This document shows positions 20,859 through 31,993 of a stretch of 64,000 nucleotides of DNA, one piece after another. This stretch comes from Candidatus Nomurabacteria bacterium RIFCSPLOWO2_01_FULL_42_17 (GTDB lineage Bacteria > Patescibacteriota > Minisyncoccia > Phycocordibacterales > UBA9973), in NCBI GenBank assembly GCA_001785985.1, contig MFVE01000005.1, positions 112,533 through 176,532 of the forward strand, written 5' to 3'. Below the pieces are notes generated by a model. That model worked only from the letters and a program-made list of their open reading frames with translations. It searched no databases and had not been told where the DNA came from. The position numbers were made by a program, and so were the translations under genes. The number at the start of each line of letters is the position of its first letter. Position 1 is the first letter of the stretch.

Positions 20859-21647
20859 TTAAATATTCGTTGATTTATTTCTACTTACCCAAATTCTATG
20901 TAAATGTCTTTGAATATCATGCGTTCCTAAATTTTTATGTTCTAATAATCCACGACCGTGGATTAGCCGCAAATTATCAAAAACAATAGCACTATTTTTC
21001 TTCCATGTGTGTGGAATAATTTTCAAATTTTTTTCTGCTATTTCTCCAAGTAAGTCATAAAATTTATCTGCATCTTCCTGAGTTTTACTACTTCCGGGTA
21101 AAGGTCTTAGACAACATTTAGGACTTGCAACCGCAATGTTCATTATGAGTTCATCGTTTTGATAACGCTTTTCTAAGAGTGGTCTTACAAACTCAAGTCC
21201 TTCTTTTTTTCTAAAAAGAAATTCATATTCTTTTGCCTCTTCTAATTGACTAGTGTTTCGTAAGATATCAATAATGTCTTTTGTGTCCCCAAAAACTGTT
21301 GGAATATCACTCGTGCCTGCATCCACACAGTGAAGAACAACTATTTCGGGAACTTTAGTTAAATATTGCCCATCTGTGTGTAGCCCAAAGTAACGACTTG
21401 ATCTTGAATAGTCAGATGCGCCTGCCTCTGGACTTTCTTTAACGTGGGAGATAATACCATCGCTACTTGCGATTGGTGTTAATATTTCACTTTCAGACAG
21501 TAATTTAATGAAGGATTCCGCATCTAAATCAACATCAAATATTTTCAAGCGTGGTCCTTCTTTACTAAAATCAATTTTAATTAATTCTTCGTAGAACTTT
21601 TTGGTTGACATAGATTCACTTTGATTGTTGAAAGATTCTTTGGGCAT
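20859..21647 (-). CDS. TauD/TfdA-family Fe(II)/2-oxoglutarate-dependent dioxygenase
   Basis: HxD...H facial triad (FGLHTDGQY ... LIHGRG) and WxNR-like IVFDNLRLIHGR. Confidence 0.5.
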   Translation of the reverse strand: MPKESFNNQSESMSTKKFYEELIKIDFSKEGPRLKIFDVDLDAESFIKLLSESEILTPIASSDGIISHVKESPEAGASDYSRSSRYFGLHTDGQYLTKVPEIVVLHCVDAGTSDIPTVFGDTKDIIDILRNTSQLEEAKEYEFLFRKKEGLEFVRPLLEKRYQNDELIMNIAVASPKCCLRPLPGSSKTQEDADKFYDLLGEIAEKNLKIIPHTWKKNSAIVFDNLRLIHGRGLLEHKNLGTHDIQRHLHRIWVSRNKSTNI

Positions 21648-21741
21648 AAAAATATAATTTTCATTATATCATAGATGATTGATTCCTATAATGTAATATT
21701 AGATTGACAAAATTCAAGTTTGTTCTTAACATAAAAGAGAT

Positions 21742-22203
21742 ATGGATACGACACCTGAAATTTCTCTTGAATCCAAAAAAACAATTTTTGAGAGAGTAAA
21801 AAAACTAAATTTCCCTATAGGTAAATATGTTGTAGTAGGCGGTGTAATGGAAGCGCATGGTATTAGGAAAGCAGTAGATGTTGATTTTATTGTCACTAAA
21901 GAATTATTTGATGATTTATTGAAACAGGGATGGGTGCCTAAGCCCTGTCGGCCTGGCGATATAGGTAAGGAAGGAGAAAAAAGAAAATTAAGAAAAGATG
22001 ATATTTCGATTATTTCTGAATATTCTTGGTTGGATAAGTATTTTGCAAAAACAGAAGATTTGATAGCCAACGCAGACATCATCGATGGTATACCTTTTAT
22101 ATCATTGAGCGAATTATTAAAATGGAAAAAAGCATGTGGTAGAGAAAAAGATTTGATAGATATCGAACTAATTGAGAATTATCTGAAAAAGAAAGGGAAT
22201 TAA
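21742..22203 (+). CDS. Nucleotidyltransferase-fold protein (Pol-beta superfamily; ANT/Lnu-like minimal NTase)
   Basis: hGG....G.....D.Dhh pattern (YVVVGGVMEAHGIRKAVDVDFIV). Confidence 0.4.
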   Translation: MDTTPEISLESKKTIFERVKKLNFPIGKYVVVGGVMEAHGIRKAVDVDFIVTKELFDDLLKQGWVPKPCRPGDIGKEGEKRKLRKDDISIISEYSWLDKYFAKTEDLIANADIIDGIPFISLSELLKWKKACGREKDLIDIELIENYLKKKGN

Positions 22204-22207
22204 ATTT

Positions 22208-22274
22208 GTAATACTAAGATTCCTGAATTTAAGCAATATGTTATACTATCCCTATGCCCGAAGGAGATAAAAGG
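22208..22274 (+). promoter_or_regulatory. Copy 1 of the repeated promoter-plus-leader cassette
   Basis: gtaatact..ttcctgaatttaagcaatatgttatactatccctATGCCCGAAGGAGATAAAA; an MPEGDK upstream ORF starts at 22254. Confidence 0.55.
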
Positions 22275-29139: not shown

Positions 29140-30023
29140 CAATATTAGCTGGACTTGGTGGAATGCTCGGTTGGGGTCTGGCTGATTTTTTTGCAAAGAA
29201 AACAATAGATGAAATAGGAGATATTGCTAGTCTAGCTTGGGCTCATATTTTTGGAACTCTGGCTTTGTTCTTGGTTGTCGCGCATAATATTATTTTCTTT
29301 GAACGAAAAATCGTGATGCCGAGTGATACATATACTTGGATTATTTTGATATTCTTTGGCGTGTTGCAAGCGGCAGTTTATTTCTTTCTTTATAGAGGAT
29401 TTGGCAAGGGCCAGGTTTCCTTATTGAGTCCAATCTTTGCTTCGTTTGCAGGAATAACTGCCATTATGTCAATAGTATTTTTTGGAGAAGCTGTAAACAT
29501 GTTTTTGATTTTTGCTCTAATTGTCATATTTTGCGGTAACTTACTCATTAATATTGATCCGCAAATTTTTAAAACAAAACGTTTTGCTTTCACCAAAATT
29601 ACTGGGTTCAAAGAAATAGCGTTAGCGACATTGCTCGCTGCTTTGTGGACGTTACTTTGGGGAAAATTTGTCAACAGCCAGGACTGGCTTTTATACGCGT
29701 TATTCATGTATGGATTCATGACACTTGCGATATTGATGTTGGTAAAATTGCAAAAAATTAATTTATCTATTAGTATTAGTAAATCCAGTATTTGGAAGTT
29801 CCTTGTTTTCATCGGTCTGTTTGAGGTGATGGCTTATCTAGCCGTAAGTTTTGGATACAGCGCCACATCGCGTATAAGTGTCATTGCCCTCTTAAGCGGA
29901 GCATTTTCTTTACCTCTTATAATACTCGCCCGAATTTTTTTGAAAGAAAAAGTTTTGCCAATTCAAAGAATGGGAAGCATCGTCATTATTTTAGGAATTA
30001 TGCTTTTAGCTTTATTAAAATAG
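29118..30023 (+). CDS. EamA/DMT-superfamily transporter
   Basis: 301 aa with about 10 TM helices arranged as two EamA-like halves. Confidence 0.65.
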   Translation: MENSLLIAILAGLGGMLGWGLADFFAKKTIDEIGDIASLAWAHIFGTLALFLVVAHNIIFFERKIVMPSDTYTWIILIFFGVLQAAVYFFLYRGFGKGQVSLLSPIFASFAGITAIMSIVFFGEAVNMFLIFALIVIFCGNLLINIDPQIFKTKRFAFTKITGFKEIALATLLAALWTLLWGKFVNSQDWLLYALFMYGFMTLAILMLVKLQKINLSISISKSSIWKFLVFIGLFEVMAYLAVSFGYSATSRISVIALLSGAFSLPLIILARIFLKEKVLPIQRMGSIVIILGIMLLALLK

Positions 30024-30027
30024 AAAT

Positions 30028-31170
30028 ATGAAGAATGTAAAAAAAGATAGGTTTGACAGAGATTTTTTAAAAACACTTAAATACCAGTCACCTTTTTTTC
30101 TTTTCTCTAAGGAGAAGATTAGAAACAATTTTTTAAATTTCAAAAAAAACTTTCCGGGATCTTCAATTTACTATGCCATGAAAGCCAATTCAGAACCGGA
30201 ATTGTTGAAAATTTTGTCAGATGCTGGAGCCGGTTTTGAAGTTGCTTCTCTGTATGAGTTGGATATTTTAAAAAAAATAGAAGTTCCGGCGGAGAAAATA
30301 ATTTACGGCACTGCAGTAAAACCTGTAAGTCATATAAAAGAATTTTATGATTACGGGGTTGATAAGTTCGCTTTTGATTCAATTAGCGAACTGGAAAAAA
30401 TCGCCAGTTTTGCGCCTCACGCAAAAGTATACTGTAGAGTCATCGTTAACGATACAGGCAGTATTTATAGGTTTTCAGAAAAGTTTGGAACTGATAAAGA
30501 AAATGTTGTGGCTTTTCTCGAGTGCGCTAAATCGCTCGGCTTACATCCATATGGTATTAGTTTTCACGTAGGTTCTCAAGCAAATAATAAAAATGCTTGG
30601 TCAAATGCTTTATCAGTATTGCAAGATATTCTTATAAATTTAAAAAATGTAGGCATAAAACTTGACATGATCAACATTGGTGGTGGTTATCCATGTACCA
30701 AATATGTTTCTTTTGAAGAAACTTTCACTTTTGAAGAAATTACCAAACATATCAATGAAAAACACAAAAAATTGCCTTATGAAACAAAGTTAATCCTGGA
30801 ACCGGGTAGAATTATTGTGGCCGATACTGGAATCCTTGTTGCTAGTGTGATTGGAAAAGTTGAACGCAGAGAAAATACGTGGCTTTTTCTGGATGCCGGA
30901 GTATACAACGCCTTGTTTGAGTCATTGGCTCACCAGGGATCAATCAAATATCACGTTTCTAGCATTAAACCTGTCGGAAATGCCGGGGAGATGATTTTTG
31001 CTTTAGCCGGTCCTACTGGTGATAGTTGGGATGTTATTACAAGAGAGGCATTTTTACCGAAAAACCTAGACATTGGGGATAAACTTGTTTTTCATGATGT
31101 AGGGGCTTATAATACAGTATGTATGAATAGGTTCAACGGTTTCCCTGCAACAAGATGTTATTTTATTTAA
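30028..31170 (+). CDS. PLP-dependent Orn/DAP/Arg decarboxylase (fold-III, alanine-racemase-like)
   Basis: PLP-Lys motif IYYAMKANSEP; ...HVGSQ...; GGGYP; C-terminal beta domain (AGPTGDSWD). Confidence 0.8.
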   Translation: MKNVKKDRFDRDFLKTLKYQSPFFLFSKEKIRNNFLNFKKNFPGSSIYYAMKANSEPELLKILSDAGAGFEVASLYELDILKKIEVPAEKIIYGTAVKPVSHIKEFYDYGVDKFAFDSISELEKIASFAPHAKVYCRVIVNDTGSIYRFSEKFGTDKENVVAFLECAKSLGLHPYGISFHVGSQANNKNAWSNALSVLQDILINLKNVGIKLDMINIGGGYPCTKYVSFEETFTFEEITKHINEKHKKLPYETKLILEPGRIIVADTGILVASVIGKVERRENTWLFLDAGVYNALFESLAHQGSIKYHVSSIKPVGNAGEMIFALAGPTGDSWDVITREAFLPKNLDIGDKLVFHDVGAYNTVCMNRFNGFPATRCYFI

Positions 31171-31174
31171 TACA

Positions 31175-31993
31175 ATGTCTAATAAATTAAAATACAATAT
31201 TTGGCAAAAAATTTCTCTCGGTTTTTTTATTTTTTTAGTAGTTTTCTGGTTAATTCTTTTTTTTAGTGGAACAAAGGATGGTTTTTATAACTATCTTTAC
31301 TCTTTTCTTTTTGGACTGATTCCGCTTTTTGCAGGAATAATAGCCATGATTAGAGCTAAAATTTGGGGTAGGTTAAAAAGCGCAGTTGGAAAGGCTGTAT
31401 TTTTTATAGGACTCGGTATCTTTTTGTGGGGATGTGGAGAAACAATTTGGTCTTATTATAATTTCTTTTTAGGTGAGCCGGCACCGTATCCTTCCTGGGC
31501 AGATTTAGGATTTGCCCCAAGCATATTCTTTTACGGCCTGGGTGCATTTTATCTCTCAAAAGCAACCGGGGCAAAGTTTGGCTTGAGGAATAAATCTGCA
31601 AAGTTTTTTGTGACTTTGGCTCCTATTCTTATTCTTATACTTTCTTATTATCTTTTAGTGGTAGTTGCAAGAGGTGGAACATTAATTCCTGAAGGCGAGA
31701 CACCACTCAAAACTTTACTTGATATAGTTTATCCACTTGGTGACTTTATTGCCCTAACTATTGCAATAATAATTTCTGGACTTTCCTTCCAATATTTGGG
31801 TGGTAGATATAAATTTGATATTTATTCCATACTACTCGGTCTTGGAGTAATGTTCATAGGCGATACTATTTTTTCTTACACAACCACCGTAGGCACATAT
31901 TACAATGCAAATTTCGGAGACTTAATGCTAACAACCGGATTATTTCTGCTTAGTTTCGGTGTTTTAGGTTTTTTTAAATTTAAAGAAGATTAA
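31175..31993 (+). CDS. Polytopic membrane protein (about 7-8 TM), possible membrane sensor module
   Basis: Hydrophobic throughout; it sits directly upstream of a small ORF and a transmembrane-less histidine kinase. Confidence 0.35.
   Translation: MSNKLKYNIWQKISLGFFIFLVVFWLILFFSGTKDGFYNYLYSFLFGLIPLFAGIIAMIRAKIWGRLKSAVGKAVFFIGLGIFLWGCGETIWSYYNFFLGEPAPYPSWADLGFAPSIFFYGLGAFYLSKATGAKFGLRNKSAKFFVTLAPILILILSYYLLVVVARGGTLIPEGETPLKTLLDIVYPLGDFIALTIAIIISGLSFQYLGGRYKFDIYSILLGLGVMFIGDTIFSYTTTVGTYYNANFGDLMLTTGLFLLSFGVLGFFKFKED

Follow-up and report, generated by a model that had tools for sequence, protein, structure and literature searches.

Herein we analysed a 64-kb stretch (the window) of the chromosome of a tiny groundwater bacterium, Candidatus Nomurabacteria bacterium RIFCSPLOWO2_01_FULL_42_17, and, within it, the region at positions 20859-31993, which sits between purF and a HisKA/HATPase histidine kinase gene. 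A sequence-only reading had described this region as an accessory island of ~11 kb whose genes resemble sets for antibiotic or metabolite modification. With moderate confidence, we interpret it instead as a recombination-prone, variable part of the chromosome in which at least four functionally independent modules are juxtaposed, rather than as one island with one job. The modules are M1 (a TauD/TfdA-family dioxygenase and the small protein NT153), M2 (the small protein p124, a DUF6875 protein, a protein kinase and a HAD phosphatase), M3 (the predicted kinase p334, the nucleotidyltransferase NT242, a Nudix hydrolase and the tandem kinase p385) and M4 (an EamA-type transporter, a decarboxylase and the membrane protein mem272). 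The claim of a single island is not supported by the comparison with other loci, where the modules recur independently: they occur separately, and never together, in the M3 loci of at least 5 kb and in the four M2 contigs. M2 and M3 recur as fixed cassettes in related bacteria and were apparently undescribed before, and each protein of the region falls in a known superfamily, none in a characterised resistance family.

A compositional and syntenic mosaic

The genes proposed from the sequence alone were all recovered at their positions by open reading frame (ORF) listing and family searches, and the AT-rich blocks seen among them are real, with a G+C content at third codon positions (GC3) of 0.17-0.29 against a flank mean of 0.408 (standard deviation 0.073, n=44 genes). 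Among the 23 genes compared in the variable region at 18.6-36.9 kb, GC3 falls below 0.30 in 11, versus 3 of the 44 outside (Fisher p = 2e-4), and this AT-richness is located at synonymous sites. Low values were found for purF (0.275), TauD (0.228), NT153 (0.247), p334 (0.245), NT242 (0.173), the decarboxylase (0.291) and mem272 (0.253), whereas the HAD-kinase-DUF6875-p124 genes (0.42-0.50) and Nudix-p385 (0.45) resemble the flanks. Since atypical blocks alternate with native ones, which make up about half of the region, the composition is that of a mosaic and not of a homogeneous island; atypical composition over the whole element, by which a genomic island is recognised, was not found, M2 and Nudix-p385 being equal to the flanks.

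The modules also part company in relatives. At 80% DNA identity, L033 is collinear with the window over 23172-25258 only, and L034 (89% DNA identity, 32% G+C) only from the repeat described below through p334-NT242, so that these relatives at 80-89% identity have single modules in common with the window. Their neighbouring genes have no counterpart in the window, and the M2/M3 junction is therefore specific to this genome. The same gene order was found in independent ENA and Logan assemblies, thus the region is not an assembly chimera. The p385 protein, over all of its 385 aa, and the DUF6875 protein each have a 100% identical NCBI counterpart from RIFCSPLOWO2_01_FULL_42_17, encoded on a 326-kb contig. 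The flanks of the window consist of ordinary core genes (DEAD-box helicase, ThyA, MurB, PilM/PilN, RuvX, class I ribonucleotide reductase and UvrABC). Family searches revealed no integrase or transposase domain at 18.8-33.2 kb, the nearest tRNAs lie at 35.3 and 36.7 kb, and the sole repeats are internal 91-nt direct repeats bracketing modules.

Some features outside the region touch on its borders. An AT-rich LAGLIDADG-type ORF at 34286-35338 (+ strand, GC3 0.214), whose 3' end lies within the 5' part of tRNA-Ser (35301-35389), is flanked by a RelB/ParE pair (33250-33793) and by another AT-rich ORF, uncharacterised, at 35401-36192; given these AT-rich ORFs past 34 kb, the mosaic reaches ~36.2 kb, beyond the reported end of the region. 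On the other side, a very AT-rich ORF at 14917-15591 (- strand, GC3 0.191) has a weak resolvase-type helix-turn-helix match and stands beside two abutting tRNA genes (tRNA-Val/Arg, 15682-15832); it may be a mobile-element remnant outside the studied region. Two further tRNAs, tRNA-His (12435-12506) and tRNA-Leu (13579-13663), are ARAGORN calls below the Rfam tRNA gathering score.

A promoter-like repeat and the transfer of p334-NT242

Three 91-nt copies of a promoter-like repeat lie on the plus strand of the region. Copy B (25409-25499) has an extended -10-like sequence (TGTTATACT) and a Shine-Dalgarno sequence and reaches into a small ORF, of which it holds the first 14 codons; copy A (22206-22296) is 65% identical to it over 91 nt, with 87% in the core, and copy C (29017-29107), just upstream of the EamA gene, is 89% identical to it. 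A partial copy (GAATTTAAnnnATATGTTATACT; 19355-19378, +) is found 37 nt upstream of purF. The 24-nt core GAATTTAAnnnATATGTTATACT has four matches in the window, versus none in 100 shuffles, and all are located at 19.3-29.1 kb on the plus strand. The small ORF (25457-25561, +) encodes a hydrophobic peptide of 34 aa (MPEGDKKVDWFLWLIGISCL...) upstream of p334; it is intact only in copy B and in L034, while in copy C its part is truncated and out of frame. In all, an element of 45-91 nt starts four plus-strand units, namely purF, a 58-aa remnant, p334-NT242 and the EamA-decarboxylase-membrane protein genes. AT-richness extends over the whole of the units behind copies A, B and C, and likewise over purF and the genes after it. 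Copies A and B bracket M2, and copies B and C bracket M3.

Among the related loci, L034 alone has the element, as a partial copy ahead of its p334 ortholog. We rejected it as a general promoter of the genome or lineage, its core being confined to 19.3-29.1 kb and absent from related loci, and we likewise rejected a riboswitch or other known RNA in the repeated leader, for which an Rfam E-value scan of 19-33.5 kb gave chance-level matches only. Generic scans for sigma-70 promoters and terminators did not exceed the shuffled expectation, and individual hairpins alone were used.

The clearest compositional break lies within M3. Here p334/NT242 and Nudix/p385 differ in GC3 by 0.20-0.28, compared with mostly <=0.1 and at most 0.13 in orthologous operons. 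Taken together with the copy in L034, this gap suggests that a copy from a low-G+C Parcubacterium probably took the place of p334-NT242 not long ago, possibly via the repeat. Horizontal acquisition, which the sequence-only reading had considered plausible for the region, is thus borne out in part: the p334-NT242 pair looks recently transferred and good signs of recent transfer are limited to it, whereas M2 and Nudix-p385 have native composition and no integrase or transposase was found.

M3 as the core of a conserved Parcubacteria operon

M3 of the window is the minimal four-gene core of a conserved Parcubacteria operon. Orthologs of p334, NT242, Nudix and p385 were found together in L024, L026, L028 and L029 by genomic context and tblastn, and 35 more loci came from searching metagenome contigs with the p334 alignment; operon counts were limited to the 29 loci of at least 5 kb. 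The four core genes are adjacent in 23 of these, as they are in the window at 25568-28923. Counted singly, NT242 stands beside p334 in 26 of the 29 loci, Nudix in 25 and p385 in 24, followed by an AroB-like cyclase (14/29), a NodU-like carbamoyltransferase (13/29), a small HAD protein (11/29) and an adenosine-deaminase-like protein (10/29). The usual order is deaminase - Nudix - p385 - Nudix - p334 - NT242 - (carbamoyltransferase) - (HAD) - AroB-like, and the operon, with up to nine genes, is collinear across Parcubacteria at 33-55% protein identity. The block of kinase, nucleotidyltransferase, Nudix and tandem kinase is therefore not a random accessory set. Core-only loci with a convergent p385, like the window, are L048, L056/L068 and L062/L063, and in the core-only L049 all four genes share one strand. 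Gene fusions further tie the members together, Nudix-p385 in P0027, P0032 and P0043 and Nudix-p334 in P0071 and P0079. The deaminase-like, second Nudix, AroB-like, NodU-like and extended-set HAD genes were found nowhere in the 64-kb window. As for the assignment of these partners, the adenosine-deaminase-like protein scores 103 bits, below the equivalog cut-off, the AroB-like protein scores 253 bits against a cut-off of 305, with "AroB-related sugar phosphate phospholyase (cyclizing)" as its second match, and the carbamoyltransferase was assigned as NodU-like. With the tandem kinase protein as sole query, a metagenome scan found nothing. Histidine kinases stand directly beside the M3 operon in L025, L026, L046 and L049, twice with a SET-domain gene, which hints at two-component control.

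The fold and family guesses made for the first two M3 proteins from the sequence alone hold. The p334 protein (25568-26572, +) is an APH/FN3K-fold kinase with K23, D177xxxxN182 and D191; its AlphaFold2 model has a pLDDT of 94, the top Foldseek match is APH(3')-Ia (E 3.6e-6), and D177-N182 and D191 are invariant in the family while K23 is kept. It looks like an active small-molecule kinase. The family is closed, comprising ~40 clusters, and its named members and contig titles are all Parcubacteria/Patescibacteria. In two homologs (P0056 and P0059, 407-409 aa) an N-terminal XRE-type helix-turn-helix precedes the kinase, either as a real fusion or as merged gene calls. NT242 (26575-27303, +) carries the signature of the Pol-beta nucleotidyltransferase superfamily, with an invariant G36S37 x11 D49xD51 and a helical C-terminal half, and scores exactly at the NTP_transf_2 cut-off; its TALE-repeat matches were rejected as a repeat-summing artefact. 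Profile searches of the PDB came back empty for p334 and NT242, and single-sequence searches of the PDB with p432 (the listed tandem-kinase ORF), p334, NT242, DUF6875 and NT153 returned nothing useful.

Between the convergent NT242 and Nudix genes, a 14-bp hairpin flanked by T- and A-runs (27308-27339) is terminator-like in both directions. The Nudix hydrolase (27358-27747, -; PF00293, 62 bits) is MutT-like, and its box reads G-x13-RECREELGV, with the REx2EE part intact and the first Glu of the box replaced. The two-domain P-loop kinase p385 (27766-28923, -) is present as the sequence-only reading had it, with a different start. The listed ORF extends to 29064, yet the NCBI protein and all 49 homologs begin at the equivalent of Met48, so that the gene almost certainly begins there and encodes 385 aa. 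The p385 family comprises 49 clusters, the named ones all from Parcubacteria/Patescibacteria, and three are fused to Nudix.

Judging from these families, the most likely substrates of M3 are nucleotides or nucleoside derivatives rather than antibiotics. In the mechanism that we propose, the module would act on nucleotides or nucleoside-derived small molecules: Nudix would cleave a nucleoside triphosphate or an NDP-X compound, p385 would re-phosphorylate the freed nucleoside mono- or diphosphate, and a partner molecule with a hydroxyl group would be phosphorylated by p334 and nucleotidylated by NT242. Where the operon is fuller, this partner would probably come from the AroB-like sugar-phosphate cyclase, the HAD protein and the NodU-like carbamoyltransferase. 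M3 might thereby help an organism that cannot make nucleotides de novo to salvage nucleotides and cofactors and to sanitise its pools. Salvage and sanitation as the role of the core, suggested by family resemblance and gene fusions, is a tentative proposal that we rate as possible but short of probable.

The four-gene cassette M2

All four M2 genes lie on the minus strand at 22544-25200. The first is p124 (24826-25200), a Cys/His/Trp-rich protein of 124 aa with the motifs MPACPVDxEWHR ... ASWDC and a weak PF27765 (UCP032817-like) match. It is followed by a divergent DUF6875/cytochrome P422-family protein of 250 aa (24026-24778; PF21780, 27.2 bits against a cut-off of 24.5), by a stand-alone eukaryote-type protein kinase domain (23230-24048; PF00069, 45.6 bits; HGD, DWG and APE motifs) and by a HAD-IA phosphatase (22544-23233), which comes nearest to the SDT1 family of pyrimidine 5'-nucleotidases (TIGR01993; score 125.9 bits, cut-off 142.9). 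The kinase and HAD genes overlap by 4 nt. The sequence-only reading had listed the first two proteins as of unknown function; both genes are present, and the larger protein belongs to DUF6875. The HExxH motif that had been noted in p124 is not conserved among its orthologs, for which reason we rejected p124 as a metalloprotease; what the family does keep is three Cys, two His and four Trp, and p124 is always the first gene of the cassette.

The cassette recurs with unrelated neighbours in L030, L031, L032 and L033, each with a p124 ortholog before the DUF6875 gene and a kinase ortholog after it. The HAD gene comes next in L030, L031 and L033 (with 62-69% identity in L030 and L031), while the L032 contig ends before that position. 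As the genes stay together amid unrelated neighbours, M2 is an independent, portable four-gene unit. Between the p124 and DUF6875 genes lies a G+C-rich hairpin followed by a U-run (24777-24802, -; z -3.3 to -4.2), with equivalents in four of the five orthologous loci (the window, L030, L032 and L033) that keep the structure and not the sequence; it might act in attenuation or stabilise the mRNA, and so raise p124 expression. Two of the cassettes have a defence-like setting, adjoining SIR2-TPR and DUF87 ATPase genes in L031 (1715-6896) and radical-SAM, CYTH and thymidylate-kinase genes in L032 (5635-7211).

Homologs of the DUF6875 protein fall into 33 clusters; 30 of these were aligned, and each matches PF21780 (best E 2.6e-7). 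A Foldseek comparison of its model with the PDB gave no match. DUF6875 has recently been characterised as cytochrome P422 (bioRxiv 10.64898/2025.12.11.692455; PMC13307353), a group of heme enzymes with a thiolate ligand whose reactions are the hydroxylation of tryptophan, at N1, C6 or C7, or the formation of a C-S bond. By analogy, C36 of the window protein is a putative thiolate ligand, and the protein might be a thiolate-heme oxygenase whose substrate is aromatic or resembles an amino acid, with p124 as a small dedicated partner, accompanied by the protein kinase and the nucleotidase-like HAD phosphatase. It is doubtful, and to be read as a long shot, that M2 is a self-contained O2-dependent heme-thiolate system of the P422 type, with p124 as its redox or heme partner or else as its protein substrate. 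In the substrate variant of this same proposal, Trp or Cys of p124 would be hydroxylated or cross-linked, the kinase and phosphatase would set the modification state, and the hairpin would boost p124 expression. If true, the newly described P422 chemistry would reach further, to proteins or peptides as substrates and to a phylum without known oxidative tailoring of this kind. A tryptophan-derived pathway joining TauD, P422 and the decarboxylase was rejected, the decarboxylase being of the Lys/Orn type and the genes never co-occurring elsewhere.

purF and module M1

The purF gene (19415-20854, +; TIGR01134, 441 bits against a cut-off of 350) had been taken as the backbone boundary of the region. 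It is, however, AT-rich itself, and its context differs among relatives: L003 and L004, in which purF is 85-88% identical, have purF alone in common with the window, with wholly different flanks (MreBC and polyamine genes in L004, an aldolase in L003). Therefore purF is no fixed backbone anchor, but part of the mosaic. It stands alone, with no other purine-synthesis gene within the 64 kb, and is preceded by the same promoter-like element as the AT-rich operons. Its best relatives outside Patescibacteria, among the genome contigs scanned, are in Sedimentibacter/Tissierellia-type Firmicutes (44-45% identity).

M1 is a lone dioxygenase together with an orphan putative nucleotidyltransferase. The former, a TauD/TfdA-family Fe(II)/2-oxoglutarate dioxygenase (20859-21647, -; PF02668, 53.7 bits), has an HxD motif, and its nearest solved structures are 7tcl and PvcB 3eat (E 1e-11). 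The latter, NT153 (21742-22203, +), is a stand-alone ORF product of 153 aa that matches phrog_12854 and no Pfam or NCBIfam model. Its family counts 1193 representative clusters of ~140-aa proteins, which keep D46xD48 and a C-terminal GR-KD-D motif, and weak matches to NTP_transf_5 or DUF6036 occur in a few members; a minimal nucleotidyltransferase fold is plausible for NT153 on this weak support. A 58-aa ORF (22282-22458, +) that begins inside repeat copy A has no family match and may be the remnant of a truncated gene.

Module M4 and the downstream histidine kinase

M4 comprises three plus-strand genes, which encode an EamA/DMT-family transporter (29118-30023; PF00892 in two stretches), an alanine-racemase-fold, pyridoxal-phosphate-dependent decarboxylase with Orn_Arg_deC_N and Orn_DAP_Arg_deC domains (30028-31170) and mem272, a polytopic membrane protein of 272 aa with which the AT-rich block ends (31175-31993). 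The decarboxylase matches the Selenomonas ruminantium lysine/ornithine decarboxylase 5gjm over its full length (E 4e-59) and the eukaryote-type ornithine decarboxylase of T. brucei (E 1e-49). With the lysA model it scores 194 bits, below the cut-off of 298, and is therefore not a diaminopimelate decarboxylase equivalog. From these similarities M4 reads as a polyamine module for diamine synthesis (Lys/Orn decarboxylase) and transport. Polyamine genes of other kinds stand close to purF or to the M3 operon in other Patescibacteria loci. EamA/DMT-like genes or fragments, identified by eye in the translations and unlike the EamA gene of the window, were also seen beside the p334 operon in L034 (1-606) and beside M2 in L033 (1500-1898).

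Past the region, at 31997-33172 (+), two genes of backbone composition encode a protein of 97 aa and a histidine kinase of 290 aa that consists of the HisKA + HATPase core only. The kinases beside the M3 operon in L025 and L026 are single proteins of 550-565 aa with a polytopic N-terminus of ~300 aa. That mem272, the 97-aa protein p97 and the 290-aa kinase form a split sensor kinase was not retained, the membrane parts having no significant similarity, and is given as a remark only.

Weighing the alternatives

Four other explanations have to be set against a mosaic of independent modules. The one closest to the sequence-only reading, a single horizontally acquired island whose kinases, nucleotidyltransferases, Nudix hydrolase and exporter modify an antibiotic or xenobiotic for resistance or detoxification, we judge very improbable. 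It could appeal to the aminoglycoside-phosphotransferase fold of p334, the ANT-type two-domain architecture of NT242, the adjacent EamA transporter, the AT-richness of half of the genes and the RelB/ParE pair, LAGLIDADG ORF and tRNA genes just past the region. At a threshold of E 0.01, however, no model of the NCBIfam library used, which contains antimicrobial-resistance (AMR) models, matches p334, NT242 or NT153, and no plasmid or phage record matches p334. The modules are found apart in other loci, there is no integrase or transposase, M2 and Nudix-p385 have native composition, and p334-NT242 lie inside a conserved operon with nucleotide enzymes, p334 being even fused to Nudix. A resistance role for M3 by itself is similarly unlikely, and markedly so. 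Almost as improbable, in our estimate, is a defence island, in which M2 and M3, clustered with a toxin-antitoxin pair, would act against phages by sensing infection and changing the nucleotide pools. PADLOC matches were obtained for the M2 kinase (PD-T4-6, 4.7e-11) and Nudix (PDC-S07, 1.8e-13), NT242 matches candidate systems and oligonucleotide cyclases weakly, M2 has SIR2-TPR/DUF87 neighbours (L031) and radical-SAM, CYTH and thymidylate-kinase neighbours (L032), RelB/ParE lies at 33250-33793, and distribution is patchy with variable flanks. These matches reflect generic domain similarity, though, and make up no complete known system; neither M2 nor M3 contains an effector-like nuclease, NADase or pore domain, and the stable order of M3 (up to nine genes at 33-55% identity) is more like that of a metabolic operon.

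Of the remaining two, one concerns the function of M3 and the other the origin of the mosaic. M3 could be the remnant of a cyclitol- or nucleoside-type natural-product pathway of which only the tailoring or immunity core was kept, where the AroB-like cyclase would make a carbocycle from a sugar phosphate, the HAD protein, carbamoyltransferase, APH-fold kinase and nucleotidyltransferase would tailor or activate it, and the deaminase, Nudix and kinases would protect the producer or supply nucleotides. We regard this as rather unlikely, yet as the least unlikely of the four. AroB-like, NodU-like and HAD genes lie inside the operon in 11-14 of the 29 loci, and the order cyclase, kinase, phosphatase, nucleotidyltransferase parallels the C7-cyclitol logic of acarbose and validamycin, which counts in its favour. 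Core-only variants persist in several lineages, however, so that the core functions without the cyclase; the operon contains no glycosyltransferase, aminotransferase or other typical late-stage enzyme, and NT242 is of the Pol-beta type, unlike the sugar-1-phosphate type of known cyclitol pathways. The mosaic itself might owe nothing to horizontal transfer and reflect amino-acid content, expression level or local mutation bias in a wholly ancestral region. Orthologs of p334/NT242 elsewhere are indeed somewhat more AT-rich than their Nudix/p385 partners, three genes in the flanks are AT-rich too, and gene order decays fast in members of the candidate phyla radiation (CPR), so that the differing contexts of 85-88% identical purF genes are weak evidence. 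That the gap lies at synonymous sites (GC3 0.17-0.25 vs 0.45) and is larger than in any orthologous operon, that an 89% identical p334-NT242 copy exists in a contig of 32% G+C and that 91-nt direct repeats bracket the module leave this explanation, in our view, with a small probability.

Several points weigh against the interpretation we prefer, that of juxtaposed modules with a nucleotide-processing M3 and a P422-type M2. The synteny of the module junctions is known from two short contigs (2.7 and 4.1 kb), and the M3 locus counts are not independent, because the same organisms, assembled more than once, account for many of the 29 loci. The shared repeat could be a strong lineage-specific promoter that was copied locally and has no bearing on function. 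For M3, the case for salvage and sanitation is drawn solely from family resemblance and gene fusions; the proposed sequence of kinase, transferase and Nudix is not chemically established, because Pol-beta nucleotidyltransferases normally target hydroxyls, which gives a product that a Nudix would not cleave, and the AroB-like and carbamoyltransferase genes of the full operon suggest biosynthesis more than salvage. For M2, the DUF6875 protein is barely above the Pfam cut-off and lacks the Arg and Gly of RxGxVCP, and CPR bacteria are generally held to lack heme synthesis.

Significance

Seen as a genomic island, the region is ordinary and its framing was in part mistaken; it has moderate value in that it points to two conserved CPR cassettes. 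CPR/Patescibacteria genomes are small, lack most biosynthesis and are rich in unannotated genes, and finding which of the unknown genes form fixed multi-gene units is a first step to function in these organisms. M3 is a candidate for the recycling and cleaning of scavenged nucleotides in symbionts, or else for a first conserved small-molecule pathway of the group. CPR organisms are thought to be fermentative heme auxotrophs, and a cassette with a P422-type heme protein, such as M2 may be, would be unexpected among them. In the literature we found nothing on the Parcubacteria M3 operon or on UPF0200/SSO1041, and no description of the Nudix-kinase fusions and the cyclase/carbamoyltransferase association of that operon or of the p124-P422-kinase-HAD cassette. 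The region also carries a caution, in that kinase, nucleotidyltransferase and Nudix genes in a row, at uneven G+C content, mimicked a resistance island where unrelated modules are in fact juxtaposed.

Comparison with known systems

With the aminoglycoside kinases APH(3')-Ia, APH(4)-Ia and APH(2'')-Ia and with human FN3K, p334 shares the bilobal fold (Foldseek probability 1.0), the catalytic D-x4-N and the Mg-binding Asp. It is just 7-16% identical to them, with TM-scores of 0.4-0.5 and no match to the APH Pfam or AMR hidden Markov models (HMMs), and it differs by the Pol-beta nucleotidyltransferase downstream and, sometimes, by a fusion to Nudix. NT242 likewise has the two-domain architecture of AadA and ANT(4'), an N-terminal GS x11 DxD motif being followed by an all-helical half, but unlike ANT-type enzymes it matches no solved structure by sequence (even by profile) and no resistance HMM. 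For the Nudix hydrolase, the best NCBIfam matches are MutT and the pyrimidine (d)NTP diphosphatase, as in MutT/NudG-type enzymes. The N-terminal half of p385 has the GxDGxGK P-loop and an invariant DR and matches thymidylate kinase weakly, whereas the C-terminal P-loop half matches the UPF0200, or "AdkA-like", Sulfolobus protein SSO1041 (E 4.5e-7); all of these Nudix and p385 scores lie far below the equivalog cut-offs. In p385 the two kinase domains stand in one chain, joined in some genomes by Nudix, and we know of no characterised protein with such a fused two-kinase (+Nudix) arrangement.

The motifs of cytochrome P422 are RxGxVCP, Rx(M/L)x3Dx2F, Dx2(Q/H)x3K and MxGxF (bioRxiv 10.64898/2025.12.11.692455). 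Of the heme motif RxGxVCP, the family of the window protein keeps F35-C36-P37 (the F invariant, the C and P at >=90%), while the Arg, Gly and Val positions are not conserved. Counterparts of the substrate motifs, aligned by eye, are R160...D167-P-K-F170 (one residue longer), H118x3K122 (without the Asp) and L131-F-G-K-F135, so that the agreement with the published motifs is partial. In relation to the P422 enzymes Mc170 and ThnD and the more distant YqcI/YcgG heme N-hydroxylases (AglA), the clade of the window protein scores just above threshold and, unlike the P422 systems, it belongs to a fixed cassette whose other genes encode p124, a protein kinase and a HAD phosphatase.

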